Assembly: GCA_038207335.1 (NCBI GenBank)
Contig: JBBQZX010000021.1
Coordinates: forward strand, 32,001-96,000
DNA: 64,000 nt
Reading direction: 5' to 3'
From: Chthoniobacterales bacterium
Lineage (GTDB): Bacteria > Verrucomicrobiota > Verrucomicrobiia > Chthoniobacterales > Chthoniobacteraceae
Under the pieces are notes generated by a model. It had not been told where the DNA came from, did no database searches, and saw nothing but the letters and a program-made list of their open reading frames with translations. The translations under genes were made by a program, and so were the position numbers. Shown here one piece after another: positions 12,479 through 48,800 of this stretch. The number at the start of each line of letters is the position of its first letter. Position 1 is the first letter of the stretch.

Positions 12479-13527
12479 TTATTTTGCCGGCCGGCGCCAG
12501 ACCCAATCGAGCTGCCTTGTAGTCGAGTGAATCTTCGGGTCGTTGGCGGCGTGGCCGTCCTCGCGATTCATCGCTACAGACCACAGATCGAAGCCGCCCT
12601 CCGGCGTGCGCCGGTAGCGCATAGGTGCGTCGTCCATAAGGTCAGCCGGGATCGCGGCGATGAAGTCCGGCACGAGTTCGTCGAGCTTTTCGGGAAACGC
12701 ACCGCGAGCCCGGCGAAACAGCTCCAGCGCACAGGCAAGCTGCGCCTGCTTTGTGTGCGCTTCGGATTTGTAAAACCTTCCATCGCTGGCATCGAAGCCG
12801 CCCATGAGCATGGCGGCGAAAATTTGGTAGATCGACTCGAACATGTTCCCTCGTCCCAATTTGTGCCCCAGATTCTTGAGGAGAAGGATGACGCTTTGGT
12901 ACGTCTGCAGCCGGATCGATCCTCGCGAGTTCATCGTCGTAGAGTTGGTTCATCAAAACTTGGTTCTGAAACAGCCAGCCACGCGGAGAGGGGCGCAGCA
13001 AAATCTTTCTCCCACTTCACAGGAAAGTTTGCGTGTGGCCGGGTCGTCCCATCTCGGAGCTGTTGCAGGAGAGGTTCATAATGTCCGACTGCGCCCAGCA
13101 CGTCGGTCGCAGCAACCGGTCCCGGAGCGTCGAGCAGCTTGTTCTTCACGAAAAAATCGCGCCAAGCCGCAAGATCGATCCGTTCCGCTTTCGACGGTTC
13201 GCCCATCGTCGGCTGCGTGGCTTTGCTTTCGGGAAATTCGAGCCGCTTGGGTGGCGGCTCGTTTGCTTCGCTCGCGCGGAAGATTTCCTCGAAGATCGGA
13301 ATCGCTGCGAAATTCTCCGCGTCCGGGACGGGCGGAGGGAGGAAATCTTTGAGGTCGAGTTTCACGCCTCGGCGCTCGGCGTCGGTGCGGTAGGCGGCCC
13401 ATGCGCGCTGGCCGCGCCAGTTTTTCTCGGCGTAAAATGCGACGATCAGCGCGATGAAGAGGATGAGCGCGAGCGCAAGGCGCAGAGCCGCTTTGCGAGT
13501 GAAAATGCGGCGAGAAAAGCGGTTCAT
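12479..13527 (-). pseudogene. Disrupted paralog of 30845..32233 (membrane-anchored protein with GspG-like C-terminus)
   Basis: Homology is spread over three frames (12931..13527, 12642..13001, 12479..12934); the central part present in the paralog is missing at about 12990. Confidence 0.72.
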
Positions 13528-13749
13528 TGGGATACCGTGGGGAGATGAAATTTACCGCGAGGGATCGAGGGAACGAATGTGAGAATGTGCGAAGGAGAGT
13601 AACTGCCTTGGCGTCCGCGCTCGGTCGATGCGGACTTTGCGGCTCGCGGAATCCGCGTCCTGGGAGCGCGGAAGTCCTGACCACTGGCTCGCTCGTCGAT
13701 TTGATATAATCTACAGCTCTCGCGATTCCGTAAAATCACCGCTACACCG

Positions 13750-15222
13750 ATGATCCTGAGCACACACGAAATGCGAGAGCTGGAGGAGCGAGCTTTTGCC
13801 GATGGCGTGAGCGCGGAGTTACTGATGGATCAAGCGGGAGTGCGTATCGCGGAGGCGGTGCGGCAGTTTTTCCCAGAGCCGGGGCGGTGCGTCGCGCACT
13901 TTGGCAAAGGCCACAACGGCGGCGATGCGCTCGTTGCCGCGGGGCATCTAGCTGCGGCGGGCTGGCGAGTCGAATTAGCACCGGCGTTTCCCATCGGCGA
14001 CTGGAGCGCGCTGACTCGGAAGAGATTCGCGACGCTCGAAGATCGCGGCTCGGCGGCTGGCGGAGGCGCTCTCGTGGTGCTCGATGGGCTGCTCGGAATC
14101 GGAGCGAGTGGCGCGCTGCGAGAGCCGATCGCGGGTGCGGCGCGAGAGATCGCGCGGCTGCGGGCGGAAGAGGGCGCGCACGTTTTTGCGATCGATCTGC
14201 CGAGCGGCCTCGACGGCGATTCCGGCGATGCTGCGGACGGCGTGGTGCAGGCGGATTTCACGCTCGCGATCGGCTTTGCGAAACGCGGGCTCGTCGCCGA
14301 TGGCGCGGCGCATTTCACCGGCCGCATCGCCGTACTGCCGCTGCGAGAACTCACCGCGCGCGCCAACTTTTCCGAGGAAACCGCAACCGTCGCGACGCCT
14401 CACACGCTCGCCTCGCTGCTACCGCGGCGCAGCTTCGACATGCACAAGGGCGACTGCGGACGCGTGGCTATCGTTGCGGGTTCGCGTGGCCTCGTCGGCG
14501 CGGCGTCGATGTGCGCGGAAGCCTGTGTCCATGCGGGCGCGGGGCTCGTCACACTCCTCGTGACGGAAGACATTTACCCCATCGCCGCGGCGCTCGCTTC
14601 GCCCGAAGTCATGGTGAAGCCCGTGGCCTCTTATCTGGAATTGCTCGACCTGAAATGCGACGTCGTCGCGTTCGGTCCCGGCCTCGGGCACGCGCGGAGC
14701 GACGAACTTCTCGAGCTCATCCGGCGTGTCGAAGCGCCCATGGTCATCGACGCGGACGGCCTCAACGCTCTCGCCGCAAGCATCCAGACTCTCGATGCCT
14801 GCGCCGGCCCGCGACTGCTCACGCCGCACCCCGGCGAGATGGCGCGGCTTGCTCCTGCTTCGCGCAAAATGCTGCGCTGCAAGACGGTCGAGACATTCAC
14901 TCAGAAGTACGCGCACACCCTGCTGCTGAAAGGCGCGCGCACGCTCATCGGCGAGCGCGGACGCCCGCTCAGCTACAACTCCACCGGCTCGCCCGGCATG
15001 GCCACCGGCGGCATGGGCGACCTCCTCACCGGCGTCTGCGCCGCCCTCGCCGCGCAGCATCTCGCGCTCTTCGATGCCGCGCGCCTCGGAGCATGGCTCT
15101 GCGGGCGCGCCGCCGAACTCGCCATTTTCTCCGACTCCGAGTCTGAGGAATCGCTCAGCGCCACAAACCTCCTTCCGCACCTCGGCGCGGCATTTCGCGA
15201 ACTGCGCGCGCGCTCATACTGA
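13750..15222 (+). CDS. nnr: Bifunctional NAD(P)H-hydrate epimerase/dehydratase (YjeF)
   Basis: GKGHNGGDAL, IDLPSG, HKGDCG, GPGLG, IDADGL, LTPHPGE, MATGGMGD. Confidence 0.95.
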   Translation: MILSTHEMRELEERAFADGVSAELLMDQAGVRIAEAVRQFFPEPGRCVAHFGKGHNGGDALVAAGHLAAAGWRVELAPAFPIGDWSALTRKRFATLEDRGSAAGGGALVVLDGLLGIGASGALREPIAGAAREIARLRAEEGAHVFAIDLPSGLDGDSGDAADGVVQADFTLAIGFAKRGLVADGAAHFTGRIAVLPLRELTARANFSEETATVATPHTLASLLPRRSFDMHKGDCGRVAIVAGSRGLVGAASMCAEACVHAGAGLVTLLVTEDIYPIAAALASPEVMVKPVASYLELLDLKCDVVAFGPGLGHARSDELLELIRRVEAPMVIDADGLNALAASIQTLDACAGPRLLTPHPGEMARLAPASRKMLRCKTVETFTQKYAHTLLLKGARTLIGERGRPLSYNSTGSPGMATGGMGDLLTGVCAALAAQHLALFDAARLGAWLCGRAAELAIFSDSESEESLSATNLLPHLGAAFRELRARSY

Positions 15223-15340
15223 TCTCCTTAATCTCCTGCCCCTCGCGCGAAGCAACCGCGCGCCCGGCGATCCGCGAATCTGCATTGCCCTGACGAGCCC
15301 GCTTTGAGCGATGTGCAGGGAAATTCAAACAAACCAAAAT

Positions 15341-17338: not shown

Positions 17339-18559
17339 GTGCGTTTCCCCTCGCTCGTCCTCCTCACGCTGCTTTGCGTCGTTGTGCTCGGTCGCGCGGA
17401 GGACTGGCCGCAATTTCGCGGCCCCACCGGTCTCGGCTACACGACGGAAAAGGCGCTCCCTACGACTTGGAACGCAGCCACCGGCGAGCACATCGCGTGG
17501 CGCGCGGCGTTGCCGAAAAGCGACGGCGCTTACTCGTCGCCCATTATCGTCGGCGACCGCGTCATCGTCACCTGCGCCTCGAATCAGCCCGTGACGCATC
17601 GCGTCCTTTGCTTTGCGAAAGCGGACGGCCGCGCGCTGTGGGACACGGCCATCGAGCCCGGGCCGTGGATTCTCACTGACCACCGCGGCGGCTACGGTGC
17701 GCCGACTCCGTGCAGCGACGGCAAGCAAATCTACGCCGTCTTTGGCTCCGCCGTCATCGCCGCGCTCAACCTCGATGGCCATCTCGTCTGGCGCCAACCC
17801 ATCGAGCCGCACGCCTTCGACGTCGCCCTCGGTAGCAGTCCGATTCTTTTCAGAGACACCGTCATCCTCGACTGCGACCAGACCGGCAAAACCTCCCACT
17901 TTCTCGCGCTCCAGACCCGCGACGGCGCCGTCCGCTGGAAAGCCGAACGCCCAGCGCAGAGCTTCGCCCACAGCACCCCCGTCATCGTCCAAATCGCCGG
18001 CAAACCCCAGATGCTCGTCAGCGCCTCCAACGCCCTCCAAGGCCTCGACCCCGCCGACGGCCACATCCTCTGGAGCTGCGCCGCGCAGGGCGACGCCGCC
18101 TCTCCGGCCTTCGCAGAAGGCCTCGTCTTCAGCGACAGCGGGCGCGGTGGCAAAGCCGTCTGTGTCGATCCCACCGGTAACGGCGACATCACCGCCACGC
18201 ACCTCCGCTGGACCATCCCGCAAATCCCCGAGGGCCTCTCCTCCGCCATCATCGTCGGCGGTCGCGTGTGGCGCACGCACAGTCCCTCCATCCTGAAGTG
18301 CTTCGACCTCGCCACCGGCAAAATCGTCTTCGCCGAGCGCATCTCCGGCCTCTCCCCGTGGCCCAGCCCCATCGCCACCGCCAATGGTCTCCTCTACTTT
18401 GCCTGCGCCGGGAAGACCGTCGTGGTGAAAGTGGCTGCCCCTCTTGAAATCGTCGCCACCAACGACCTCGGCGAAGAAGACCGCGCCAGCGCCGCGGTCA
18501 GCGACGGCCACCTCTTCATCCGTGGTGACAAAACCCTCTTCTGCATCGGCCCCAAATAA
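17339..18559 (+). CDS. PQQ-like beta-propeller repeat protein
   Basis: Signal peptide + DWPQFRGP, SSPI, PTP, ASPA repeats, C-terminal LFIRG..LFCIG; GTG start inferred. Confidence 0.88.
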   Translation: MRFPSLVLLTLLCVVVLGRAEDWPQFRGPTGLGYTTEKALPTTWNAATGEHIAWRAALPKSDGAYSSPIIVGDRVIVTCASNQPVTHRVLCFAKADGRALWDTAIEPGPWILTDHRGGYGAPTPCSDGKQIYAVFGSAVIAALNLDGHLVWRQPIEPHAFDVALGSSPILFRDTVILDCDQTGKTSHFLALQTRDGAVRWKAERPAQSFAHSTPVIVQIAGKPQMLVSASNALQGLDPADGHILWSCAAQGDAASPAFAEGLVFSDSGRGGKAVCVDPTGNGDITATHLRWTIPQIPEGLSSAIIVGGRVWRTHSPSILKCFDLATGKIVFAERISGLSPWPSPIATANGLLYFACAGKTVVVKVAAPLEIVATNDLGEEDRASAAVSDGHLFIRGDKTLFCIGPK

Positions 18560-19519
18560 ATGAAACTCCTCCCTCTCGCAGCACTCCTCCTCCTCGCCGT
18601 CGCCGCTTCCGCCGCCGACTGGGAAAACATCTCCGACGCCACCACCGCCCAAGTCAAACCCGGCTACGGTGGCCCCACCTCCGGAGTCGTCGCCGACCGC
18701 ACCAATGGCGACCTCTTCATGGTCATCAGCGACCAGGGCCTCTGGCGCAGCACCGACCACGGCGCCACTTTCACCCGCTGCGACGGCGGCGCGATTGGTG
18801 GCCGATGCGAGACCGGTTGGGCGCTCCAAGCCGACACCGCCGGCAGCCGCCTCGCCTGCTTCATGATCTACGGCAGCAGCGGCATGAGCACCGACCGCGG
18901 CGCGACTTGGACGAAATTCAAAACCACCCACCTCGACTTCGGCGCCGTCGATTGGGCCGACACCGCGCATCGCCTCCTCGCCATCCGACACGAGAGCGGC
19001 GGCATGCTCACCACCAGCCCTGACGCCGGCACCACTTGGACCGACCTCGGCAAAGACTACACCGGTTGCGGCGTCCTCGATTCCCACACCTTCCTCGCCA
19101 CCAAAACCGCCGAACCCGGCATCTTCCGCAGCACCGATGCCGGGGTCACGTGGACCCGTGTCTTCGAGCAAACCCCAGCTGCCCCCGTCCCCGTCCTCTT
19201 TGATAAAGTCGCCTACTGGCTTGCCGGCAAAACCCTCCTCGTCAGCCGCGACCTCGGTGCCACTTGGTCTGCGCTCCCAGGCGTGGTCGAGGCCAGTTAC
19301 GGTCCCTACTTCGCCGACGCCCAACACTTCACCGTCGTTGGACCCAAAGGCTTCCTCGAAACCAGCGACGCCGGCACCACTTGGACCCCCGCTGCTCCAC
19401 TGCCGTCCGGCTTCAAAATCCAGCGCGTCGGCCCGAACTTCGCCTGGGATCCCCGCGCCGACCTCTTCTACGCCTCCGCCATGACCCGACCCACCTTCCG
19501 GCTCACTCGAGGAAAGTAG
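18560..19519 (+). CDS. Secreted BNR/Asp-box beta-propeller protein
   Basis: Six Asp-boxes (RSTDHGATF, STDRGATW, SPDAGTTW, RSTDAGVTW, SRDLGATW, TSDAGTTW). Confidence 0.85.
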   Translation: MKLLPLAALLLLAVAASAADWENISDATTAQVKPGYGGPTSGVVADRTNGDLFMVISDQGLWRSTDHGATFTRCDGGAIGGRCETGWALQADTAGSRLACFMIYGSSGMSTDRGATWTKFKTTHLDFGAVDWADTAHRLLAIRHESGGMLTTSPDAGTTWTDLGKDYTGCGVLDSHTFLATKTAEPGIFRSTDAGVTWTRVFEQTPAAPVPVLFDKVAYWLAGKTLLVSRDLGATWSALPGVVEASYGPYFADAQHFTVVGPKGFLETSDAGTTWTPAAPLPSGFKIQRVGPNFAWDPRADLFYASAMTRPTFRLTRGK

Positions 19520-19600
19520 CACCTCTCGGAAAAATCCATTTGCGCCGTGCGTCAGATTCGCATTGCAGCGTTGGGCTTCGTCCCCGTTCCCCTCCTATCT

Positions 19601-20758
19601 ATGAAACATCGTCTTTACCTTGCATTCGCGGCCTTCCTCAGCGCGACGGGCGTCGCCGACCTCCGAGCGCAGACCCTCGCCGACCCGAGCTTCGAGTCGG
19701 TTCAGCAGGGGGGTGCAAATTTCTACTACCAGCCCACCGGCTTCCCATGGAGTTTCACCTCCACCTCCGGCGTCATCCAGCCCCCCAGCGCTTTTGCGGG
19801 TCCCACCACCGGCTTTAATGGCACCCAATACGCCTTTCTCCAGACCAACACCGGCAGTCCTAGCTCCAACGGTGCCGGCGGCCTCATCTCACAGACTGTC
19901 AATTTCCCGAGCGCGGGCAACTACCGGCTCTCCCTAATAAACGCTTACCGGGGAACTCAATCCGCCGCCCGCTACGCCGTCCAGATCGACGGCGTCACCG
20001 TCACCTCCTCCGTGGGCGCCTTCAATAGCGCCTTCACCGCGAATCAGATCAACTTCGCCGCCCCTGCCGGTTCTCACACCTTCTCCCTCATCTCCACCGG
20101 GCCCACCGACTCCACCACATTTGTGGACCAGCTCGCCCTCTCCGTCGCCAATGGCGGCTTCAGCATCGGCACCTTCACCGGCGACGCCGACTCCGGCGTC
20201 TCCACCTCGAAGACCTACACCCACGCCATCGATCTCGATGGCTCCGGTGGCAACGTCAATGGCGTCACCTTTTCCCCCGGAGGCACCGGCGCCCAAGCCA
20301 CCTACACCCTCTCTGGAGCCGGAACGCCCAACGCCAGCCTCACCACCAACACTCTCACCGGCACGATGCACTCCATCGCCACCGACTTCTTCTACGGCGG
20401 CAATCCGGCCACCCTCACCCTCTCCGGCCTCACCGTCGGCAAACAATACCTCACCACCTTCTACGCCGCCGGCTTTGGCGCCGCCGGGGGCCGTCTCCAG
20501 ACCGCCTCCGACAGTCTGGGCAACGTCATCTACTTCGATGAAGACGCCGCCGGCCAGAACAACGGCACCCTTTTGCGCGACGCCTTCACCGCCACCGCCA
20601 GCACCGTTACCTTCACCTTCACACCGACTGTAGCCGGCAATACCTACCACTTCTACGGTTTCAGCAACGAAGTCGTCCCCGAGCCCGGCACCCTCGGCCT
20701 CCTCGCCTGCGCCGCCACCGGCCTTCTCGCCCGCCGTCGCCGCAGCGCTGCGCAGTAA
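19601..20758 (+). CDS. PEP-CTERM surface protein
   Basis: Signal peptide, a jelly-roll-like N domain (DPSFE), C-terminal VPEP-TM-RRRR. Confidence 0.92.
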   Translation: MKHRLYLAFAAFLSATGVADLRAQTLADPSFESVQQGGANFYYQPTGFPWSFTSTSGVIQPPSAFAGPTTGFNGTQYAFLQTNTGSPSSNGAGGLISQTVNFPSAGNYRLSLINAYRGTQSAARYAVQIDGVTVTSSVGAFNSAFTANQINFAAPAGSHTFSLISTGPTDSTTFVDQLALSVANGGFSIGTFTGDADSGVSTSKTYTHAIDLDGSGGNVNGVTFSPGGTGAQATYTLSGAGTPNASLTTNTLTGTMHSIATDFFYGGNPATLTLSGLTVGKQYLTTFYAAGFGAAGGRLQTASDSLGNVIYFDEDAAGQNNGTLLRDAFTATASTVTFTFTPTVAGNTYHFYGFSNEVVPEPGTLGLLACAATGLLARRRRSAAQ

Positions 20759-20856
20759 TCACCGGCCAGTCCGCAGTGGGTCCGTTGCGCACAAAATTCT
20801 CTGCATCACGTTTGCAAAAACCCCGAGTTTGCTTCAATGCGACCCTCTTTTTCGCC

Positions 20857-21285
20857 ATGAAAAGCACACACGCCCGCTGCCTCCCCTTCCTCTGCCTTTT
20901 CCCGCCGCCGTGCCTGCGTGGGCTGGCACGTTGAAACGCGGTCGTTACAGTGGAACCTGCGTCTTTACTCAGACCCTTGCCGAGAGCGGTATCGTCGTGA
21001 AAAAGACGTTCGCCGTCACCGGCCGCATCCGCGATAATTTCACCTGCATCTTTCTTGGCGTCCCCCTCGGGGTCGCCACCAATCGCGTCGATAGGCGACT
21101 TTTCAGTGGCACCATCAATGTCGGTCTCAGTAAATTTAGCGGCCTCAGAGGCACCGATAACGACGGCAATACATTCAGTTGTCAGAACCGGCGGCACCCT
21201 GCGGCTCGCCTGGACCTTCCATCACGGCCAGACGTTCGGCGATACGGTCAACCGTCGCGCATCTCACGGCGATAGGGGGCGCTAG
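20857..21285 (+). pseudogene. Frameshifted secreted hypothetical protein
   Basis: ATG 20857 signal-like start shifts near 20900 into the 20829 frame (AAVPAWAGTLKRG) and apparently shifts again near 21185. Confidence 0.4.
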
Positions 21286-21291
21286 AGGCGG

Positions 21292-24373: not shown

Positions 24374-24586
24374 GCGAGTGAAACGTCCCGCGCCCCGGCC
24401 CCGGCCTTGCGGCGAATTCAGTGCCACGGCATTTCGATAGCGCCCAGAGGGAAGACCGCGAAATCGTTTCGTGCGTGAATTTTTTTGCTTTCACGGGTGT
24501 GGTGCGCTTCATTCCGCGCGCTTGCAAGAAAGGCGGCTTGTCAAGGCAGTGCTCGGTGCCCGCCGGTCGGTCTCAAGTTCCCTTGC

Positions 24587-27500
24587 ATGAAAGCATTTGC
24601 CGCATTCCTTTTGCTCGTCTGCGCTCCGTTCGCGGACGCCGCTTCGTTGTTTCAAGATGGCTTCGAGACAGGTCCGCTCGGGAGCGCATGGACAGTGACA
24701 AGCAGTGGCGACGGGCGGGTGGCGATCCACGATGACTTTGGCCTGCGACGGGTGCGCGGCATTTGGTGCTGGATGATGCGGTGAGCGATGCGGCGAATTC
24801 CGTGGCGGAGGCGACGCTGACGCTGGACCTGGCGCACAAGAAGAATGTGGTGCTCTCTTTCAAGGCGAAGAGTCTCGGCAATGAGCCGAATCCGCCCCCG
24901 GCGAACAACTTCTCCAATACGCGCAACTACGACGGCGTGGCAGTGAGTGTCGATGGGGGGACCACTTGGAGGGCGGTGCAGTCGCTTGCGGGTGTGGGGA
25001 CGGATTGGGAGAGCTTTAATATCACGCTCGATAGCTCGGTGGCGTGGCTGGGGTCGTTTAGCGCGGGCTTTCGCATCCGCTTTTCGGAATATGACAACGC
25101 GAGGGTGCCGATCGATGGGATCGCGATCGACGATGTCGCGGTGACCGGCGACGACGACCTGAGCGCGGTGCTGGAGCTGCCCTCGTCGGTGCGCGAGGGA
25201 AGCGGGCCGTATATCGGCTACGTCCTGCTTTCTTTCTCGCAGCCACAGGCGGTGACGGTGGCGCTGGCGACTTCGCCCACGGGGCAGGTGCTGCTGCCGG
25301 CCTCCGTGGTGGTGCCTGCGGGGCAGTCGTACGCGAGCTTTGAGTTCACCGTGGCGGACGATGCGCTCGTGAATCTTACCCGGATCATCACGGTGACGCC
25401 CTTGGGGCCGGCCGGCTTCACGGGCGTCCCGAGCAGCATCGTGGTGCTGGACGACGAGGCTCTGCCCACCGCGACCTTGACCCTGCCCGCGCAATTGAAG
25501 GAGGGGGAGCTCCCAGGGGGTAATGCCTTCATCTCGCTGAAGTTTCCCGCCACCGCACCGATCGTTTTCGATATCACGACGAGTCCTGCGGGGGAGATTT
25601 CCGTTCCATCGACGGTCACCGTCCCCGCTGGCGCGACGCTGGCGGGCTTCACAGCTCAAGCGCTCAATGATACGCGGCTCGATGGGGACATTCTCGTGAC
25701 CGTGACGGCGACCGCGCCCCTACTCGCCCCGGCTGTGGCGCAGACGACCGCCGTGGACGACGAAATTCCCGCGCTCTCCCTGGTGCTGCCCGCGACTTTG
25801 ACCGAAGGTGCCGCCGGCACAGCCACGATCAACATGTCCGGCGCGCTGCCAGCGGCCCTGACCGTCAATCTCACCAGCTCGCTCACTGCCGCGCTCACGG
25901 TGCCCACGACGATCATGATCCCCGCGGGCCAGACGACCGCGACATTTCCCCTGACCACCGTGGACGACGGCCTGATCAATTTCGCCCGCTCCGCGACGAT
26001 CAGCGCCAGCGGAACCGGCGTGTCGAGCACTTCGGCCAGCCTCTCCGTGCTCGACGACGAAACGCCGCCGGTGCTCACGCTCACGCTGCCCGCCACCGTC
26101 ACCGAGGGCCTTTACCCCGCGTGGAATGCCACCGTCTCGCTCAGCACCGCCGCTGCCGCTCCGCTGACCGTCGTCTTCACTACCAACCCCGGCACCGAGC
26201 TGAGCCTCCCATTTTCCCTGATCATCCCCGCCGGCCAGACGCAGGTGGCGTTCACCGTCCAGGCGGCGAATGACACGCGCATCGACGGCGACGTCCTCGT
26301 CTCAGTCTCCGCGACCCCGTCCAGCGCATCCGGTGTCGCGCCCGCCACCGCGAGCATCACCACCATCGACAACGAAACCCGCGTGCTCACCCTCGCCCTC
26401 CCCGCCACGATCCTAGAGGGCGGCACCGGCTCCGGCACCGTCACGATGTCCGGCACTTTGACGACCCCGCTCGTGGTCAGTCTCACCAGCTCGAAAGTCA
26501 GCGCGCTCACGCTTCCAGCCACCGTCACGATCCCCGCCGGCGGCACCCAGGTCAGCTTCATCGCCACCGCTCCCGACAACGCCGCCACCGACGGCAGCCG
26601 CCCCGTCAATGGCACCGTTGCCGCCGCGACCTTCACCGGCGCATCGGCCGCCGTCGTCGTCCGCGACAACGAACTCGTCCGCTACAGCTTCAGCGGCCTG
26701 GCGAATATCGTGAACGTCTCCAAGCCGCAGACCATCACCGTCGGCGGGGCCGATGTGGAGGGGAACATCATCCCCGGCGTGCTCGGCACGGTGAATCTCA
26801 GTCTCGTCCGTCCGGACGGCACCACCCAGCCTTTGACGCCGCCCACCGCGGTGCTCTCCGGCTCGGCGGGTTGGACCGGGAGCGTCACACTTCCCGCCGT
26901 CACGGTGGGGCCGCTGAAGTTGCGCGCCACCGGCACGGGCGGCATCACCGGCGACTCGAGCTTCTTCGACCCGCTGAACGTCCTGAGCCTCACGACAGCC
27001 GACCTTTTGTGGGATGGAGTCCGCAAGCGCATCTTCGCGAGCGTGCCTGCCACGGCGGGCGGCGCTTATGCAAATCAGGTCGTCGCCATCGATCCCGCCA
27101 CCCTCCAGATCACTGGCAGCGTCACCACCGGCCAGGACCCCGGACAGATCGTCATGACTAGCGGCGGCGAATACCTCTACGTCGCGCTCAAGGCCAACGG
27201 CACCGTCGATCGCATCGAGCGCAGCCCCACCGCTGGCACCTTCATCGGCTACAACAACTACACCAGCGGCTTCGGCCTCACCCGCCTCCTCATCGCCTCC
27301 GACGGCGTCACCATCACCCAAACAAATTCCAGCGTCATCAGCGGCTACTACGTCGAAATCCGTAGCTCCGGCTCCCTCCTCGCCTCCTCCAGCGGCCTCA
27401 TCGTCGATGCCGCCAGCCTCACCCTTAAGTCCAACCTCGGCACCACCGGGCGCCCCTGCCTTGACACCCCCTACCAGCGCGCCTACATCGTCAATGGCGC

Positions 27501-28469: not shown

Positions 28470-28593
28470 CTGCCGACTGCGGCGGCCCGGAGGGCAGAAG
28501 AAGCGAACGGGTGGCGCCATCTCACGGAGGAACGACCACAGCTACGGCAGGGGCGTCGGAAGCCCCAGCAGGAAGTGGAATCTCCAAAGACGG

Positions 28594-30674: not shown

Positions 30675-30844
30675 GGGTATGAGGGTTACTCCGACACCAT
30701 CAGGCCAAATGAGCCAAAACCAAGCTTCCGCAAAGGATGCGCCGGGGAGCCATGCCGCGACCTTTACAGGAGAGGAAAAGGAGGAGGCAAGAGATATCTT
30801 TTACTTTCCACCGGATGGGGTAGGGCTGCGGCGGGGGGAGGGGT

Positions 30845-32233: not shown

Positions 32234-32249
32234 GGCGCGGGGGGCCGGG

Positions 32250-34271
32250 CTAGGCGCGGCGGTCGCGGATGGAGGCCAGGATGTCGGCGATGACTTCGGC
32301 GCGGGGGCGGGCGCCCTGAGGGCCTTTGCCGTGGATGCGGACGCTGACGACGCCGGTTTCGAGGTCGCGCGGGCCGAGGATAAGCATGTGGTGGACTTTC
32401 TGCATCTCGGCGTTGGCGATCTTGGCTTTAATCGGGTCACGGGTCTCGTCGATCTCGGCGCGGACGCCGTGGCTGCGGAGTTCCTTGACGTAGTCCTTTG
32501 CGAAAAAGACCGAGGCCTCGTCGTCGCCTAAGGTGAGGACGCGGACCTGCAGGGGGGCGAGCCAGAGGGGGAAATTCCCCGCGTAGTGCTCGATGAGGAA
32601 GCCGATGAAGCGCTCGTGGGTGCCGAGGGGGGCGCGGTGGATGCAGAGGGGGGTGGCGTCGGTATTCTCGCGGGTCTTGTAGTGGAGGCCGAAGCGGGCG
32701 GGGACGGCGAAATCGACCTGGTTGGTGGCGAGAGTGAACTCTTTGCCGATGACGTTCCAAATCTGGATGTCGATCTTCGGCCCGTAGAAGGCGGCTTCGT
32801 TGGGCACTTCGATGAAGGGCGCGCCGCTGGCGATGAGGACGTCGCGGACCATCTTCTCGGTCTTGAGCCAGAGGTCGGACTGATCGACGTATTTCTTGCC
32901 GAGCTCCTCGGGGCTGTGGGTGCTGAAGCGGAACTGGTAGCGATCGACGCCGAAGATGGCGAAGTATTTGAGGTACATCTGGTTGACGGCCTCGAACTCG
33001 GCGGCGAACTGCTCCTCGGTGCAGTAGATGTGGGCGTCGTTCATCTGCATGGCGCGCACGCGCATGAGCCCGAAGAGTTCGCCCGACTGCTCGTAGCGGT
33101 AGCACGTCCCATATTCCGCCAGCCGCAAAGGCAGGTCGCGATAGCTGCGCGGCACCGCCCCGAAGAGCTTGTGGTGGTGCGGGCAGTTCATGGCTTTGAG
33201 GTAGTAGCGGTCGCCTCGCACCAAGCGTTGGAACGCCGCGTTGTGGGTTTGGTATTCCGCCCACGTTGCCGCTATCTCAGGAGGAAAAGTCCCGGCTTGC
33301 TCGGCTCTTGATACGACTTCATCGACGGGGCCTTCTTCCCCAGCGGGAATCCAATCCCTTACTTTCACAAACGCGGCCCGTGCTTTGTGACTGAGTTCAT
33401 CGGACTGCGCCGCGTTCTCATTTAACATCATCGGCGGAAACATGCTGTCCGCGTAGTAAGGCAGGTGCCCGCTGGTGAGATACATGTTCTCCCGCGCGAG
33501 GTGCGGGGTGCGGACGCGGTCGTAGCCGGCGGCGAACTCCGTCTCTTTGGCGAGCTTTTCCAACTCCTCGATGAGGACGGTGCCGCGCGGGAGCCAGAGC
33601 GGGAGGCCGGGGCCGACATCATCGTCGAAGCAGAAGAGCTCCATCTCGCGGCCGAGCTTGCGGTGGTCGCGCTTTTTCGCCTCCTCGAGCATGGTGAAAT
33701 ACTCGTCGAGCAGGGTCTTGTTCTTGAAGGCGGTACCGTAGATGCGCTGGAGCTGGGGGTTCTTTTCGTCGCCCTTGTAGTAGGCGCTGGCGACGTGCGT
33801 GAGCCGGAAGGCGCCGATATTTCCCGTGCGCATGACGTGGGGCCCGGCGCAGAGGTCGGTGAAGTCGCCGTTGCGGAAGATGGAGATTTCCTCGCCCTCG
33901 GGGATGCCCTGGATGATGTCGAGCTTGAAAGTGGAGGGGGTGCCGCGCGTGGCGAGGGCGGCGAGCTCGCCGCGATAGGCCATGGCGAGGGCATCGGCGC
34001 GGCTGAGGGTCTGCTTTTCAAAGGTGTGGTTGGCCTTGATCTCCTTTTTCATCTCGGCCTCGATGGCGGGGAAGTCCTCGGGGGTGATGCGGTGGGAGGG
34101 GAGGTCGAGGTCGTAGTAGAAGCCGGCCTCGACGGGGGGGCCGGCGGCGAATTGGGCATCCGGCCAGATGCGGAGGATGGCGGTGGCGAGGACGTGGGCG
34201 GCGCTGTGGCGGAGCCGCTCGAGGTCGGTCATCTGCGCGCGTTGTTCGAGGGTTTTGCGTTCGTCGGACAT
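32250..34271 (-). CDS. thrS: Threonine--tRNA ligase with a large insertion
   Basis: LRHSAAH, DLCAGPH, KRDHRKLG, MNCPHH, GLMRVR, AFYGPKID, IHRAPLGTHERF. Confidence 0.97.
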   Translation of the reverse strand: MSDERKTLEQRAQMTDLERLRHSAAHVLATAILRIWPDAQFAAGPPVEAGFYYDLDLPSHRITPEDFPAIEAEMKKEIKANHTFEKQTLSRADALAMAYRGELAALATRGTPSTFKLDIIQGIPEGEEISIFRNGDFTDLCAGPHVMRTGNIGAFRLTHVASAYYKGDEKNPQLQRIYGTAFKNKTLLDEYFTMLEEAKKRDHRKLGREMELFCFDDDVGPGLPLWLPRGTVLIEELEKLAKETEFAAGYDRVRTPHLARENMYLTSGHLPYYADSMFPPMMLNENAAQSDELSHKARAAFVKVRDWIPAGEEGPVDEVVSRAEQAGTFPPEIAATWAEYQTHNAAFQRLVRGDRYYLKAMNCPHHHKLFGAVPRSYRDLPLRLAEYGTCYRYEQSGELFGLMRVRAMQMNDAHIYCTEEQFAAEFEAVNQMYLKYFAIFGVDRYQFRFSTHSPEELGKKYVDQSDLWLKTEKMVRDVLIASGAPFIEVPNEAAFYGPKIDIQIWNVIGKEFTLATNQVDFAVPARFGLHYKTRENTDATPLCIHRAPLGTHERFIGFLIEHYAGNFPLWLAPLQVRVLTLGDDEASVFFAKDYVKELRSHGVRAEIDETRDPIKAKIANAEMQKVHHMLILGPRDLETGVVSVRIHGKGPQGARPRAEVIADILASIRDRRA

Positions 34272-42110: not shown

Positions 42111-45100
42111 CTATTTCCCTCTCACCGACTCGAGGTAGGCGAGGAGGGAGGCCAGTTCTTCGGGCGTGAAGGGCGCGAGCAGGCCTTCGGGCATGATCGA
42201 CACCTCGCGCTTTCCCTGCGCCTTGATGTCGCCTTTCTCCAGCGTCACGGATTGGCCCGTGATGTTCCGCACGTCCAGCGAGTCGCCGCCGTCGCGCGTC
42301 ACGAAGCCCTCGATGTGCTCACCCTTCTTTGTGTCGAACCACACGCTCTCGAACCCCTGCGCAATCTTCGCACTCGGTTTCAGGATCGACTCTGTGAGCT
42401 CCGGTCGCCCGTAGATTTTCGCCACCGCGGACAGGATCGGCCCCTTCGGCGGTTCATCGGGCGTGATCGTGTGGCACGCGATGCATCCGGCGCGCAGGAA
42501 CATCTCCTTGCCCTTCACCGGGTCGCCGCCCTTCTGCACCGCCGCAAAAACCTCCTCATATTTCATCGTCCCGATCGTCATCGACTGCGAGCCCGTGTCC
42601 TTCAGTCCGAGGCTCTGGTAGGCGAAGAGCGCGGCTTCAGCCACCGCGTTGTTCGGGTCTTTCAGGTGCGCCGTCACCTGCGGGGCGAAAGCTGCGGCCC
42701 TTGTGTGCGCGATCACTCCGAGCAGTGCGGCGGCGGTTTCCGGCTTTGCCCACAGGCCGTCGAGCGCCTTCTGCGCGGCGGCGAGATCCTTCTTATCCGT
42801 CACCTTGCTACCCGCGAGATTCACCAGTACCGTCAGGCCGAGGTGCTGCTTTCCGGCGTCCTTCTCCGTCGCCAGTTTCGCGAAATCCCAGACGTGCTTT
42901 GCATTCCGCCCGTCGTGTGTGAATTCCTCCCACACCTGCGCCAGCGGCCCCGCGGGCGGCGACGTCGACGCCAGCGTCGCGAACGCATCCGCGCCCGCCT
43001 CGAACATCTCCTTGTTCTCCATCGACTTCTGGAAATCCCGCAGCGCACGCGAACGCAGTTCCGGCGTCTCCTTGGCGTTCGACGCGATCCCCGACAACGC
43101 CTTCAGCGCGTCCGCCGGTAGCGACTTGTCCCCGCGTACCAGCGCCTCGATCGCGCCCAGCTTCGCCGCCGTGTCGGTGCCCGCCTTCGCGAGCATGAGG
43201 TCCGTCAGCCCTGGAAAATCCACCTTTGTCTTCACGAGCGTCGCCACCAGCCACTTCGCTTCCTCCGCGTCGGTTTTGGAAAGTTCCGCCTTCATCGCCG
43301 CCTCGATCTTCTCAGAACCCGCCCACTTCTCGCCCTTGTAAACCGGCCCCGTCGTATCCGGCCGCGTCGTCCACCACTTCCCGTATTCGTAAGCTGTCTC
43401 CTTCTGATCCAGCCGGCACAGCGCGTTCAGGATGCCGCGCCGCAGCGCCGGCTCCTTCGCTGAGGAAAGTCGCGCCAGCAGGCCATCGACCACCTTCACG
43501 TCGTAAATCCCGTAGAGCGCGCGCAGCACGCCGGGCGCGGCCTTTTCGTCGGACGAACTCAGCGCCGCCAGGCACGCATCCGCCGCATTCATCGCCGACA
43601 GATACCGCACCGCCACATGCGCGATCACCGGGTCCGTATCCCCCGTCAGCGGAATCATCGACCCCGCGGCCTCAATCTTCCCCAGCCGTCCGAGTGCCGT
43701 CACCGCCTGCAGGCGGACGTGCTCATTCTTATCCGAAAGCGCTGCCACCAGCGGTGCTGTCGGCACCTTCCCGGCCAGCCGCACATCGTCGCCCATCGCC
43801 TTCAGCGCGAATTCCCGCATCTCGTCGTCCTTCAGCAGCGCCGTCTCCAGCCCCAGAGTCTTCTCTCCGAACATCTGCGTCAGCGTGAAGAGCGCGGCGA
43901 CGCGCACATTGACCGGCGCGTGCATCTTTGCGATCTCTGCCAAGCCTTCCGACACTCCCGGGCGCGGCCCGCGTCGGAGCAATTCCCGTTGCGCCGTCTG
44001 GCGTAAAGTCGCGCTCTCCGACCCCACCAGCCGCACCAGCGCGAGATCATCCAGCTTCCCGAAATCCGGCACCGGCGCCGGCTTCGCGCCCTCTTTCACC
44101 AGTTCGATCAAATATCCCGCATTCGGCCCTTCGTATTTAAACGTCGCCCCCTCCCAGCTCGAAACGTAGAGCCGCTGCGAGCCGTCCACATCCATGTCCG
44201 TCGGGCGCGTCATGGGCAGCCACTTCTCTTGCGGTGCCTTTTCATAGCCTGCGCCCAGCCGTTTCAGGTCGTGGTAGAAGATGCCGCCGGATCCCCATTC
44301 CACCGTGTACAGCCCCTTCCGCAGCCCCGGCTCATCCAGCCAGAGCGACCCGCACGGAGAACCGCCGCCGAAATCCGTCAATGCCGGCACGATATCCTCC
44401 GGGAAATTCACAAACAAATTCGGATACCCCATGTGCGCTCCCATCGGGATAAAGCTCAGCCGGTCGTTCCAGCCGCCTCCGTCGTTCGTATTATCGCGGG
44501 TAAAGACCTCCAGCGTCGGGCTCACCGCCACGTCGTAGATATTCCGCTGCCCGCGCGACACGTATTCCAGCCCTGTGCCGTCCGTCCGCACCCGCACCAC
44601 GCCGCCGCCCTTCATGTGTAGCGTATTGCCGTCCTTGCCCTTGGCCTCCAGCGCCCCGTAGTCGCCCACCGCGATGTAGATCCACCCATCGATCGCCAGC
44701 CGGCAGCCATTCGTCGTATGATCCGCCCCGCGGAATTTCAGATCGAAGCCCAGCCCCTTGACCAAGTCCTCCTCCTTATCCGCCACCCCGTCTCCATCCG
44801 AGTCCGTATAAACCGTCAGGTTTGGCGGATGCATCACGTACATACGCCCCGGCCCGGTCCCCGTAGCCCCGTCCCAAATCACCCCGCGCGGACTATCCAT
44901 CTTGGCGAATACCTTGAATTCATCCGCCACCCCATCCCCATCCTTATCGATACAGCGCAGCACCTTACCGCGATCCGGCTTTGCATCCAGCGAACCATTC
45001 TCATCGATCGCGACAAAAAGCGTTCCATCCGCCGCCGCGCTCACGGAAGTCGGATACCCCACCTCCGGCGGTTTCGCAAAAAGCGTCCCCTTGAAGCCCT

Positions 45101-45227
45101 CGGGGATCTTCACACTCTTCGGCAGGTCCGCCCCCAGCGCGGCAGTCGAGAGCAGGAGCGCAGGCAGCACAGCGGGCAGCAGGAGCGCTTGGAGGGAGAG
45201 CATGGGGAGTTTCGGACGGCGGTTCAT
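42111..45227 (-). CDS. PVC-type membrane-bound dehydrogenase / HEAT-repeat / heme-binding CxxCH protein
   Basis: DxDGDGxAD, DHTTNG, DNTNDGGGW propeller, HEAT repeats, GKEMF..AGCIACH, ESILKPS..IAQGF, SIMPEGL. Confidence 0.9.
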   Translation of the reverse strand: MNRRPKLPMLSLQALLLPAVLPALLLSTAALGADLPKSVKIPEGFKGTLFAKPPEVGYPTSVSAAADGTLFVAIDENGSLDAKPDRGKVLRCIDKDGDGVADEFKVFAKMDSPRGVIWDGATGTGPGRMYVMHPPNLTVYTDSDGDGVADKEEDLVKGLGFDLKFRGADHTTNGCRLAIDGWIYIAVGDYGALEAKGKDGNTLHMKGGGVVRVRTDGTGLEYVSRGQRNIYDVAVSPTLEVFTRDNTNDGGGWNDRLSFIPMGAHMGYPNLFVNFPEDIVPALTDFGGGSPCGSLWLDEPGLRKGLYTVEWGSGGIFYHDLKRLGAGYEKAPQEKWLPMTRPTDMDVDGSQRLYVSSWEGATFKYEGPNAGYLIELVKEGAKPAPVPDFGKLDDLALVRLVGSESATLRQTAQRELLRRGPRPGVSEGLAEIAKMHAPVNVRVAALFTLTQMFGEKTLGLETALLKDDEMREFALKAMGDDVRLAGKVPTAPLVAALSDKNEHVRLQAVTALGRLGKIEAAGSMIPLTGDTDPVIAHVAVRYLSAMNAADACLAALSSSDEKAAPGVLRALYGIYDVKVVDGLLARLSSAKEPALRRGILNALCRLDQKETAYEYGKWWTTRPDTTGPVYKGEKWAGSEKIEAAMKAELSKTDAEEAKWLVATLVKTKVDFPGLTDLMLAKAGTDTAAKLGAIEALVRGDKSLPADALKALSGIASNAKETPELRSRALRDFQKSMENKEMFEAGADAFATLASTSPPAGPLAQVWEEFTHDGRNAKHVWDFAKLATEKDAGKQHLGLTVLVNLAGSKVTDKKDLAAAQKALDGLWAKPETAAALLGVIAHTRAAAFAPQVTAHLKDPNNAVAEAALFAYQSLGLKDTGSQSMTIGTMKYEEVFAAVQKGGDPVKGKEMFLRAGCIACHTITPDEPPKGPILSAVAKIYGRPELTESILKPSAKIAQGFESVWFDTKKGEHIEGFVTRDGGDSLDVRNITGQSVTLEKGDIKAQGKREVSIMPEGLLAPFTPEELASLLAYLESVRGK

Positions 45228-45446
45228 ATCGGTGTGAAAGTCGGAGTTTGAGCCCCGCACAATCCCATGGCGAGCCCCGAGCTTAGTCCTCGCGGAAAAA
45301 AGGCAGCGGGCCGACTTTTGCCGGAGCTCCACCTCCCGCCAGGCAAGCGTGGCCTGTCAGAGCTCCGAAATGAGGCGTGAGGAAGTGTAATTACTCTGGA
45401 AATCGGCTTGCTGACGGCGTCAAAAAACGGAGAGCCCGAAGTGACG

Positions 45447-45587
45447 ACCGGACACCAGTTTGCCTCGACTGGATCCAGTCTGGCCTGAGCAGAAGACACG
45501 GAATGGAGAGCGGACGCCAGTCTGGTTATGCCGGACGCCAGTTTTCCTGCAAAGGACGGTAGTTTGTTCCAAAGGAGCGCCCTTTTG
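45447..45587. repeat. Degenerate 20-21 bp periodic direct-repeat array (GGACRCCAGT core)
   Basis: CCAGT-type cores at 45455, 45475, 45517, 45538, 45559. Confidence 0.6.
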
Positions 45588-45850
45588 TCGCGCCTACCGT
45601 CCCCGAGCGGGAGATTGGGGACGAGGGACGCTGGGCGGACGGAAAGCCGTCCCATCCAGCGCACCCCGCGCGGTCCGGTTACGATTCCGCGGGGATCATC
45701 GATCCCGGCTAGAGGCGTTTCGTGGGAATTCGCGGTTGACGTGGTGCAGGGGCGCGCTTAGCAAGAAAGGTGTCTTTTTTCTCTCCCCAGAGAACGATCC
45801 AGCGTTCCAGCGATACTCTGTCCCGCTCGCTCGTGTTCCCGATTCGTCCT

Positions 45851-48800
45851 ATGAAAAAATCTCTCGGCAACTTCACCCCGGCGATGGTCGGGAAGCGCTC
45901 ACTTTCACTGGCGGCGGCGGTGGCCGCGATGCTGGGAGGCGTGCGGGACTCGCGGGGGCAGACGAGTGGGACTTTTACCTTCTCGGGAAATCTAGGGGCG
46001 GGGGACTCTGATGCGCTGGTGGGGCTGGATACGAGTAAGACGTATCTGGATGCGTATAACTTCGGGATCGGGGCGGGGAATGTGACGGTGAATGGGGTGA
46101 CTTTCACGGGGGTGGCTGGGACGAATCCCGCGGTGGGCGGGATTTTCTCGACGACGGGGCTGGGGAATCAGAACGCCGGGGTGGGAGCGGTGCCGGGGGG
46201 GCAGCTCGGACTGGTGACGACGGGCTTCGTGTATGGGGCGACGACGGTACCGGAGGTTTTCACGCTGAGCAATCTGACGGTGGGGCAGTCGTATGTCGTG
46301 AGCTTTTACAACAAGGTGTGGGACGCTGCGGCACGGACGCAAAACTTGTCGGCGGGCGGGGCCTCGACGGCGTCGGGGGCGGCTTACGATGAGAATACAT
46401 CGGGGGTGGTGGGGAATCTGAATATCCTGCGTTACACATTCCTGGCGTCGGCTCCGACGCAGACGGTGTCGTTTGCGGCGCAGGTGTCGAATACGACGAA
46501 TCACCAGTACGGGTTCACGCTGGAGCAGACTTTCAACAATATCTGGGTGAGCGGGAATACGTGGACGACGTCGGTGTGGGGCGGCGGGGCGGCGACGGCG
46601 CCGAATTCGGCGGGGTCGAATGGGTATTTCGGACCGCAGGGAACGCCGACGACGATCGATCTGGATGCGGACCGGACGGTGGGGCATTTGCAGTTCGAGG
46701 GGACGAATGCGTGGACGGTGAGCAGTGTGGGGGGGAAGACGCTGACACTGCAGGCGGATGTGGGCGGTGCCTCGACGCTGAGCGCGCTGTCGGGCTCGCA
46801 TACGATCGCGCCGAATATCACGCTTTTATCTCCGACGCTGCTGAAGGTGGGCGACGGAAAGCTGACGCTGAGCGGGAATATCGCGGGCGGGACGAACGGG
46901 GTGACGGTGGGCGGGGGAACGCTGGCGCTGACGGGGGTGAATGATTACCGCGGGGAGACGATCATCGGGAGCGGGACGCTGGAGGTGACGACGGTGTCGG
47001 ACTACGGAGTTGCGAGTGGGATCGGGAGCCGGGCGCTGGCGGACGAGAATACGACGCTGACTGGCGTGGGGCTGCATTTCATGGGGGGGACGCTGCGGTT
47101 TGTGGGGACGACGCCGCAGAGCACGAACCGGAATATCCGGGTGCTGAACGGGCCGAACGGTGGGACGATCGATGCGTCGGGGACGAATCCGGCGGCGACG
47201 CTGAGCTTCACGAAGACGGGGGCGAATATTAACCTCTTCGACACTGGCGGGACACGGACTTTAACGCTGACGGGAAGCAACAAGGGGGATAATGGGTTTT
47301 CGATCCCGCTGATCAATCAGGCGGCTTTTGCGACGAGCCTGACGAAGTCCGGGGCGGGGACGTGGGTGCTGAACGGGCCGGATGTGAACAGCGCGACGGG
47401 GACAACGCTGGTGACAGGCGGGCTCTTGAAGCTGGCGAAGACGGCGGTGTCGGCGGTGAGCGGGCCGCTGAGCATCGGCGACGGGACGGCACCGGCGGCG
47501 GTGGAGCTGGGAGGGACGGGGGGCAATCAGGTCGCTGATGGATCGCTGGTGACACTCGCGGGGAGCGGAGTGAATGCGGGAGCCCTGAGGGTGAAGGATA
47601 CAGCAGAGACGCTGGGCGGGCTGAGCAGTGTGGGCGGGGCGGGAATCGTAGAAAATGAAGGGACGGCGACGGGGACGCTGACGCTCAATGTGGCGGCGAC
47701 GCAGGCATTCAGCGGGGTGCTGCGCGACGGCGACGGCGTGGGCTCGGACGGTGTGCTGGCTTTGGCAAAAACCGGCGTGGGGACGCAGACGCTGTCGGGC
47801 AACAACACCTATTCGGGCCTGACGACGGTGTCGGCGGGCGTGTTGGATTTGCAAAGCGGGAACGCGCTGGGCTCGACGGTTGCCGGGACGACGGTGGCGA
47901 CGAATGTGGCGCTGCAGCTCAGCGGCGGAATCGCGGTGGGGGCGGAGACGCTGTCGATTGTGGGCGGCGGCATTGTGAATACCGGTGCGATCCGCAATCT
48001 TTCGGGGAACAATTCGTGGGCGGGGACGATCACGCTGACGGGTCAGACGCGGTTTGTGTCGGATGCGGGGTCGCTGACGCTGGGCGGAGTGACTGGGGCG
48101 CAGAATTTGATCTTGAGCGGAGCGGGGGACGTCGTGCTCGGCGGGCCGATCACGCTGGGGATCGGATTTATTTCAAAGGATAACCTCGTCGGTGGTGGGA
48201 CCGGTGCGCTGACACTGAGCGGCGCGAATACCTACAGCGGAGCGACAATGGTGACGGCTGGGACACTGCGGCTGGATTACACGACGCAGGATAATTCCAA
48301 GCTGTCGGACACCGCGGCGCTGGTGCTAGGCGGGGTGCCGGTCGTGCTGACCGGCGGATCGCACGCGGAGGTAGTCGGCTCGACGACGCTGAACGCTGGA
48401 ACGGCAAGTTCGCTGAGCAGGTCGAGTGGGACCGCGGTGCTGCAACTCGGCACGGTGACTGTGGGAGCCGGAGCGAGGCTGAATGTCAGCGCGGATAACA
48501 TCGCGACGACGAACAACCTGAACTCCGATGGCCTGCTGCTCGGATTCCGCGTGGGGAATTCATTCGCGGTGAACGGGACGAACTCGCCGGGTGGAGCGAT
48601 CGTGGCTTTTACCGGATACACGAACGTGAACCGAATGGGCGGCACGATCCCGAACGGCGCAGGGACGGTCGCGCGAATCGTGGAAGGTGGTGCGGGTGGA
48701 AATGTGACGCTCGGAGCACCGTCGACTTTGATCGATGCGCTGCAAGTGGACGCAACCGGAGCGACGACGATCGCGCCGACGAGCCCCGGAGACATCTTGT

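Follow-up and report, generated by a model that had tools for sequence, protein, structure and literature searches.

Bacterial GC skew is usually read as the product of one origin and one terminus, and the choice between G and C at synonymous sites as a matter of translation or of genome-wide mutation. The iteron arrays of plasmids (P1, pSC101, RK2, R6K) are phased repeats about two helical turns apart, located beside a small gene. In Escherichia coli, mutation maxima lie within 2 kb of breaks, do not depend on which way replication or transcription runs and arise via resection and gap filling (PMC3607216, in extract). In Caulobacter, G:C-to-C:G and A:T-to-C:G changes depend on imuB and imuC (PMC3901139, in extract). 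Here, a stretch of 64 000 nucleotides from a Chthoniobacterales genome (assembly GCA_038207335.1, contig JBBQZX010000021.1, called C21 below, positions 32001–96000; 'the window') was analysed. An initial annotation of this window had described a sawtooth of GC skew, in which the plus strand switches abruptly from C-rich to G-rich and then decays. The switches were found throughout the genome, and many of the strong ones are marked by non-coding arrays of period 21/42, a link of which no description was found in the literature covered. A repair origin is tentatively proposed for the switches.

Results

The source genome (G000) consists of 5.17 Mb in 53 contigs with 62% GC (94.7% complete, 0.63% contaminated). 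The only sequencing run matched to it is a sediment metagenome. Genes were called with a self-trained dicodon model in which G versus C at fourfold-degenerate sites was masked, giving 3856 genes. The residual of a fourfold G/C site is its value minus the mean of the codon box, expressed on the plus strand. The strand whose 5'–3' direction points at the nearest site is called 'toward' and its complement 'away'. Twenty-one relatives were sampled (20–342 kb each) using an adapted gene model; their skew values are rough because coding density was only 0.54–0.9.

Genome-wide scoring of fourfold sites, the check proposed by the initial annotation, bore out the sawtooth. The standard deviation of the 1-kb step statistic was 2.31, against 0.98 after shuffling; at |z| > 8, 63 peaks pointed up and 19 down. 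At the 3396 gene boundaries, z exceeded 8 in 91 cases and was below –8 in 11; at a threshold of 12 these numbers were 27 and 0. The 63 strongest up-peaks were mostly (89%) within 150 bp of a gap of at least 100 bp, compared with 19% of random points, and the trend inside genes was downward (mean step –0.045, n = 1088). There were 154 non-redundant switches (82 tandem, 44 convergent and 28 divergent) with a median spacing of 16.6 kb, and about 23% of the 5.2-Mb genome is within 4 kb of a site.

The footprint is a property of the DNA position rather than of the gene. Its amplitude in toward/away genes was 0.244/0.253 in the first 600 bp and 0.219/0.237, 0.151/0.162 and 0.088/0.082 in the successive distance bins, and the signal continued unchanged into second genes and over strand flips. 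These near-equal amplitudes and the carry-over across strand flips rule out gene orientation, or a gradient along the transcription unit, as the sole cause. Intergenic DNA near the sites was skewed the same way, weakly (G 0.326, C 0.273). The decay was identical for switch spacings from less than 8 kb to more than 32 kb and reached zero by 4–6 kb in all four spacing classes. Many sites were lopsided: the left and right residuals correlated with r = 0.11 across 623 long gaps, which break the flank autocorrelation (0.11 versus 0.67). A rule based on transcript ends was rejected: convergent pairs with gaps below 20 bp had a step of –0.07 (n = 176), and just 3–8% of divergent gaps of 60–350 bp were switches.

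Replication skew from one origin does not explain the sawtooth, as had been argued from the window. The decay length is fixed, the base spectrum is different (see below) and the footprint is independent of the fork, with an amplitude of 0.214 both ahead of and behind its inferred position (29 arrays). A weak ordinary replichore skew remains in the genome (per-contig T/A z up to 6.5). The single dnaA gene (C8:137786–139120) is not at a polarity change, the far-site G/C and T/A residuals being negative on both sides; oriC may be elsewhere than dnaA. The initial view of a local process that is asymmetric between the strands and acts around discrete sites was upheld.

Non-coding arrays of period 21/42, which the initial annotation had missed, mark many strong switch sites. 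A lag-21 signal was present in 39% of 64 gaps with z > 8 and in 4% of 347 neutral gaps. With an array finder blind to skew, 40 intergenic period-21/42 arrays were detected in the genome. Their flanks averaged –0.185 on the left and +0.230 on the right, with steps above 0.25 at 26 of the 34 that could be scored. The array step was 0.383, against 0.091 ± 0.033 in gaps matched for length (maximum 0.214 in 5000 draws). Centred on the arrays, the residual in successive 500-bp steps was 0.22, 0.24, 0.24, 0.20, 0.13, 0.09, 0.05, 0.02 and 0.01 (Gaussian sigma 1.85 kb). The profile is symmetric about the arrays; it stays near 0.23 for 1.5 kb and is back to zero at about 4 kb. Identity at lags 21 and 42, on which the arrays had been selected, was 0.49 and 0.54 for a background of 0.27. 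The degenerate core word differs from array to array and is in many cases palindromic or inverted, and the arrays are unskewed in themselves (0.007 and 0.064). They were rejected as heptad-coding open reading frames, the signal at lags 3, 6 and 9 being absent. Among 11 arrays located in genes, three were at or near in-gene switches or had similar steps.

Other marks were found at the switches. The TTACTCTG motif often caps one array end, and a looser form adjoins 7 of the 40 arrays; the mean downstream residual was +0.226 for its 22 intergenic copies versus +0.009 for 16 genic copies. Dispersed repeats were enriched in switch gaps. No sequence motif common to all sites was found, the k-mer scans returning mainly C/G runs, TTACTCTG, the CAACGCCGCACCC motif and the REP-like word TGTAGGGC. 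Once gap length was allowed for, REP-like hairpins, tRNA genes and 7-bp tandem repeats were hardly enriched, if at all (rep8 +0.04 ± 0.03, rep2 +0.01, tRNA +0.03, period-7 step 0.005). A HIP1-type palindrome was also rejected (GCGATCGC, 421 observed versus 626 expected; step z 0.3 and –0.1), and neither HIP1 nor other palindromes were found as centres of down-steps. Switch points had been said to fall often in DNA of lower GC. This is so only in comparison with genes, as switch gaps have a GC of 0.60–0.61 and other gaps below 1.5 kb one of 0.59–0.60.

Two further repeats were noted. A family bounded by CCTAAC...GTTAGG (C1:1427–1615 and 39 related copies), which we take to resemble integron attC sites, was at up-steps in seven of nine scorable copies. 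The oriented TTCAACGCCGCACCC motif (for example C2:303150–303197; 23 intergenic copies) has a C-rich 5' flank (–0.20) and a neutral 3' flank and sometimes abuts TTACTCTG; it is possibly an element end or an insertion target.

The base spectrum was determined on the toward and away strands. On both sides of a site, A, G and T give way alike to C on the toward strand, and the away strand gains G. Near arrays, the toward strand compared with far DNA had log-ratio changes of +1.29 for C/G, +1.20 for C/T and +1.17 for C/A, with –0.08 for G/A and –0.11 for T/A. A+T falls from about 0.15 to 0.10, so that local GC rises. The shift is similar in each of the eight fourfold boxes and in every neighbour context (C/G 1.9–2.2); twofold sites shift too, C/T changing by –0.41 to –0.47 on the away strand. 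The local footprint (dlog G/C 1.77, T/A –0.11) differs from the same genome far from switches (0.36, +0.20) and from the replication skew of the congener G004 (2.67, +1.17). The same measure was noisy and mixed in the other patchy genomes (G100 +0.65, G005 +0.02, G099 –0.55).

Codon models were then compared. A fixation bias with two parameters captured some 96% of the codon difference between toward and away strands (deviance 782 versus 19931). A model with transitions only had a deviance of 10657, against 643–782 for richer models and 430 for a bias limited to third positions. First-position synonymous pairs were unshifted (CTG/TTG –0.03 ± 0.07, CGG/AGG –0.23 ± 0.14), and a non-steady state is therefore needed. 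The best codon fit was an additive transient flux from any base to C (A 0.85, G 0.67, T 0.78), with a deviance of 1345 versus 1655 for a steady fixation bias and 1592; that of the null was 23110.

Among the relatives, G099 (standard deviation 2.17, skewness 0.49) and G100 (2.64, 0.72) have a sawtooth, and G101 and G028 partly so; 140-kb samples of G000 gave 1.7–2.6 for the same statistic. Replication skew was uniform in G004 and G007, and G006, G022, G030, G011 and G037 were flat. The uniform fourfold skew of G004 is unusually strong over most of the 240 kb sampled, and other members of the genus are flat; within the genus, the strength of skew is thus highly labile. Seven arrays could be scored in the samples of relatives, six of them with positive steps (mean 0.16). 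The switches of G099 and G100 are at short gaps too. At two switches of G100 (L190:9064–9613 and L159:5621–5839), short-period inverted repeats and a small inserted open reading frame, presumably a four-helix-bundle-like gene, were seen, with no 21-bp arrays.

Three arrays of G000 are located 80–140 bp upstream of a gene of 204–222 codons. Its product has no Pfam match. AlphaFold predicted a helical hairpin (residues 10–31 and 35–88) and a beta-sandwich (pLDDT 93, pTM 0.52), and the sandwich matched FN3 domains (best E 1.6e-4), likewise in a viral library. The family comprises 6583 clusters at 50% identity, with look-alikes in Bacteroidota and Planctomycetota. The gene was found in 9 of 30 chosen genomes and in 12 of 301 of the class, few candidates having been scored per genome. 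An array was present upstream of it at all 12 genome loci fetched (two known beforehand) and at 10 of the 15 metagenome loci examined, 4 of 19 having been skipped where the gene starts at an edge. Array and gene are therefore considered as one conserved cassette, although most G000 arrays have no such gene alongside.

Across 19 loci with gene and array, the 12 fourfold steps that could be scored were all positive (7 at 0.14 or more; the coding-strand baseline is uncorrected). Away genes were G-richer than toward genes at all nine array–gene loci of other genomes with both orientations. Replication of the link between arrays and skew outside G000 is partial. The array-linked gene had no match in G004 and G007, G006 has the gene and its sample is flat, and G099 and G100 have partial matches only. 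C-terminal fragments alone were found at C1:227348–227626 in G099, C13:10220–10501 in G100 and C16:81897–82061 in G000. The sequences suggest that the cassette may have decayed in the sawtooth genomes, and the weak footprints at two of the three intact cassettes would suit a recent insertion.

In the window, the per-line G:C counts first reported (14:28, 25:16, 14:28, 27:13, 9:26 and 29:11) were exact. Six of the switches named there were recovered at z 6.0–16.6; those placed near 13.5 kb (12.9–13.7 kb, z 4.2) and 1.5 kb (boundary at 1.7 kb, z 3.4) are weak. The strongest (45204–45850; z 16.6, lag-21/42 score 0.54) is a divergent intergenic gap with residuals of –0.32 on the left and +0.44 on the right. 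It contains the element-end motif and a decayed period-21/42 array. The TTACTCTG motif (45391–45398, plus strand) points into the array, and is also located at the distal end of other arrays. The array itself (45445–45570) is short and degenerate, with a CCAGT-type core repeated in 20/42/21/21-bp steps; it passes the gap lag test and is not one of the 40 arrays of the stricter finder. The left footprint (42111–45203, minus strand) covers a DUF7133/HEAT/cytochrome c gene (Pfam), in which the plus strand is C-rich and the coding strand G-rich (fourfold G:C of 96:35, 102:30, 115:25 and 79:47 by coding strand). On the right (45851–51289, plus strand), a PATR-repeat gene (Pfam PF12951) has a G-rich start that fades to parity (244:26, 213:58, 142:99, 138:127).

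No clear period-21 array was found at the other switches of the window. A divergent gap (24374–24765; z 6.4, lag score 0.38), in which no array was detected, is followed by one gene that spans two footprints (24766–28089, plus strand). Its 5' quarter is G-rich and its 3' quarter nearly pure C, the fourfold G:C of the coding strand being 111:42, 73:112, 44:124 and 7:153 per quarter. The gradual decay described within single genes was thus confirmed, here and in nnr (YjeF_N and Carb_kinase, Pfam), which together with the weak switch occupies 12935–15222 and goes from 35:22 to 20:51 between its first and last quarters. A convergent gap (28470–28593; z 8.0, lag score 0.49) has a left residual of –0.43. 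A gap between tandem minus-strand genes (30675–30844; z 7.6) has a right footprint (30845–34271, minus strand) that includes thrS. The coding strand of thrS has a fourfold G:C of 59:255, a G fraction of 0.19; in 47 orthologues this fraction was 0.08–0.68 (mean 0.40). For this comparison, 47 of 79 loci were kept (GC of 58% or more, more than 350 aligned residues), and the thrS relatives were mostly metagenome-assembled genomes of Chthoniobacterales and other Verrucomicrobiota. A convergent gap (20759–21291; z 6.8) is one-sided, with –0.36 on the left and a near-neutral –0.03 on the right. Its left footprint (17339–20758, plus strand) covers three genes with fourfold G:C as low as 1:43 and 4:57, the last protein having what we take to be a PEP-CTERM-like tail. 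A right-sided gap (58889–59257; z 6.0) is outside the 13500–48500 range first annotated.

Homologous domains on the same strand had been reported to use opposite codons, and this was verified: ACC/ACG, GGC/GGG and GTC/GTG were 25/2, 19/1 and 6/0 at 20.2–20.7 kb, versus 0/19, 3/20 and 1/17 at 46.0–46.5 kb. A domain of about 190 residues, extracellular and with no Pfam match, is common to the PEP-CTERM-like protein (19601–20758) and the PATR-repeat protein (45851–46530), with 36% identity over 192 aa by blastp (E 4e-13). The segment 36375–42078 holds two tandem pairs, each of a gene of about 510–525 codons then a 113-codon P-II-like gene; from the N-termini, we assume that they are amtB–glnK-like.

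Discussion

With a confidence that stays somewhat below even, the sawtooth is read as the sum of footprints of about 4 kb at about 150 intergenic sites, each the scar of recurrent, site-anchored repair of a single-strand gap or a resected break. The process would start at the element, through a blocked polymerase, a nick or a break. The toward strand would then be left single-stranded or invading, and the away strand would be newly made for 1–4 kb. The polarity of the footprint fits a resected break or a post-replicative gap because both leave the toward strand single and the away strand remade outward; the footprint length of 1–4 kb fits their repair tracts. Either an error-prone refill may insert G into the new strand, or heteroduplex mismatch repair may spare C on the invading strand; the two are inseparable by sequence. 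The helical-hairpin/FN3 protein might bind its own array and create the block, which is the most speculative step, and sites with no array would be decayed copies or other inserted repeats.

The genome encodes candidates for the refill, DinB-like and ImuB-like proteins (two of the IMS family) and a second DnaE, and, for the heteroduplex option, MutS and MutL; a 1221-aa frame of the UvrD family is a candidate end-processing helicase. PF12705 (AddAB/RecB-type nuclease) gave no hit in this genome, which is 94.7% complete, and sbcD was below the cut-off in G000, G006, G099 and G100. Loss of recG, rnhA, mutS, mutL or comEC was rejected as a cause, all being present. Mutants of dinB and imuC have comparable spontaneous mutation rates (PMC7198004, in extract), and this source therefore lends no support. 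A 'barrier' reading, with frequent sources that cancel except beside arrays, is disfavoured because GC rises near arrays.

Several observations weigh against repair at sites marked by arrays. Arrays were detected at just 26 of the 195 gaps that exceed a z of 5, at 21 of the 85 above 8 and at 9 of the 26 above 12. Eight of the 34 scorable arrays have no step above 0.25, two being negative; of the three arrays whose gene is intact, two show a weak or negative step. No arrays were detected in 342 kb of G099 and 113 kb of G100, both of which have a sawtooth, and G012 has four arrays in 120 kb yet is nearly flat. At the loci of other genomes, 5 of the 12 fourfold steps were 0.07 or less, and the raw skew step was positive at just 10 of 17. 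Arrays thus mark sites and are neither necessary nor sufficient. Hairpin strength did not predict the step in 330 sampled gaps. Intergenic skew is far below fourfold skew (log C/G 0.13), and the first-position pairs, CTG/TTG included, do not move. The codon fits are overdispersed (deviance of about 18 per degree of freedom), so that the lead of the additive model is modest. The repair genes tested do not split sawtooth from flat genomes, G004 and G006 also having a second DnaE and G099 showing only one. The heteroduplex option draws on the mismatch hierarchy, in which C-containing mismatches are poorly repaired, for which no usable source was found. The support is base composition throughout, from which breaks, gaps, binding and mutation events are inferred.

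A more specific proposal, possible but doubtful, is that array and helical-hairpin/FN3 gene form an undescribed widespread element whose protein would assemble on the array and trigger local, strand-polar resynthesis or conversion, rewriting some 4 kb to either side in favour of C on the incoming strand. The element could be either the cause of the footprint or an inserter at such sites.

Of the other explanations, selection at the DNA level survives best, and we consider it unlikely. A protein with strand polarity that loads at the array (a translocase, a helicase or a binder that spreads) would favour C over about 2 kb of the incoming strand. The success of the two-parameter fixation bias agrees with it, as does an effect that is strand-symmetric and free of context, with much the same C/G shift next to all neighbours. 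The content of single bases is all that changes, with no motif, and the arrays themselves are unskewed. At steady state the first-position synonymous pairs would be expected to follow, and they do not. We know of no such protein.

Quite unlikely is that the arrays are iteron-like docking sites firing short bidirectional synthesis, that is, abortive extra origins with origin-type skew. The switches have the sign of an origin, C-rich to G-rich, the effect extends symmetrically from the site, and the 21-bp phasing, which is that of iterons, and the palindromic or inverted cores are iteron-like. The decay length, however, is fixed and unrelated to the distance of the next site, and the spectrum (G/C 1.77, T/A –0.11) is neither that of G004 (2.67, +1.17) nor that of far sites (0.36, +0.20). 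The genome has one dnaA and keeps a weak skew on the scale of replichores. The linked protein has no Pfam match and matches FN3 folds only, unlike a Rep or DnaA initiator, and switch gaps are not AT-rich as an unwinding region would be.

Selection at the RNA level, by which transcripts nearing insertion hotspots would be C-rich for Rho termination and departing ones G-rich, is decidedly improbable. Rho prefers C-rich, G-poor RNA. Two Rho paralogues are present in G000 (508 and 454 bits, just below the TIGR00767 cut-off) and in almost all of the 40 relatives from the order, the fit of the third-position-only bias beats that of the all-position one (430 versus 782), and at long convergent gaps the mean effect is about doubled. 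The flat relatives, however, carry the same two Rho genes, and amplitude and decay are equal on sense and antisense strands. C enrichment extends kilobases into reading frames, and most transcript ends, such as those of the closely spaced convergent pairs above, have no effect. The G000 paralogues are at C1:66302–67531 and C18:44465–45553, in open frames of 462 and 683 aa.

R-loops and exposure of single-stranded DNA were among the processes initially suggested. Cytosine deamination of an away strand exposed by outward transcription or R-loops is largely refuted as sole cause and has very little probability; break or gap repair and protein-loading sites, from the same initial list, are still candidates. 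The sign is correct, the twofold C/T ratio is lower on the away strand, and the word TACTCT resembles, we assume, a –10 box. There is no excess of T over A, the gain is mainly of C or G with local GC rising, the transitions-only model fits far worse (10657 versus 643–782) and RNase HI is present. Hardly credible is a mosaic artefact (a chimeric bin, DNA from donors, or a chromosome that was strongly skewed before inversions rearranged it): the congener G004 does have a uniform skew of the same size, long gaps do break the flank autocorrelation and many sites are one-sided, but inversions or donors predict equal numbers of up- and down-steps where 27 versus 0 were seen at |z| > 12, gradients are smooth within single genes, contamination is 0.63%, and a 14-kb contig of the probable source run, which is not independent, spans the 45.5-kb switch with no difference.

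Near the sites, the choice between G and C at silent positions follows location alone, and this effect is several times that of replication. Since the footprint raises GC, it provides a localized test case for what drives bacterial GC (biased conversion, error-prone polymerases or selection). It also gives a first measurable phenotype for the unnamed family of 6583 clusters and its arrays. In lineages of this kind, skew can mislead when it is used to call origins or to check for chimeras. If the array/FN3 element were confirmed as the cause, it would amount to a mutator footprint that is targeted, raises GC and lies in the core genes of bacteria.

Comparison with known systems

A search of the open-licence literature, subscription papers and supplements being outside its scope, found nothing on kilobase-scale one-directional bacterial skew switches or on 21-bp arrays with an FN3 gene. 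On the tests applied, the footprint did not qualify as an origin, an iteron replicon, a set of rut zones, a deamination skew or a HIP1 footprint. The arrays differ from plasmid iterons in that each has its own degenerate core, the adjoining gene, missing at most arrays, encodes a helical hairpin plus FN3 and not a Rep protein, and no AT-rich stretch is present.

Repeated skew switches in bacteria, as in G000, were described by Xia (2012; PMC3269012), with multiple origins or transferred DNA as the proposed causes. In the extract of that paper the switches are few and large-scale, with no element, whereas those of G000 number about 150, run in one direction on the kilobase scale and have a non-replicative spectrum. 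Human CpG islands and replication origins resemble G000 in having many discrete sites, a two-sided origin-like asymmetry and a site GC that is raised (Polak and Arndt, 2009; PMC2817419, in extract). They are eukaryotic, with flanks of up to 1 Mb ascribed to origins, whereas the G000 footprint covers 4 kb and is C/G-specific in a genome with one dnaA. The Caulobacter ImuABC/DnaE2 system makes G:C-to-C:G and A:T-to-C:G changes and has homologues in G000; no site-anchoring or strand polarity is reported in the extract of PMC3901139, and the genes are also present in flat relatives.

The work of Shee, Gibson and Rosenberg in 2012 reportedly used frameshift reporters at engineered cuts. The footprint in G000 is fixed in the genome, base-specific and strand-polar, unlike the E. 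coli double-strand break hotspots, and its breaks are inferred. Like them, it is centred on a site, strongest within 2 kb and independent of direction (Shee, Gibson and Rosenberg, 2012; PMC3607216, in extract). The tail of the E. coli hotspots extends to about 60 kb (same extract), whereas that of the G000 footprint ends by 4 kb.

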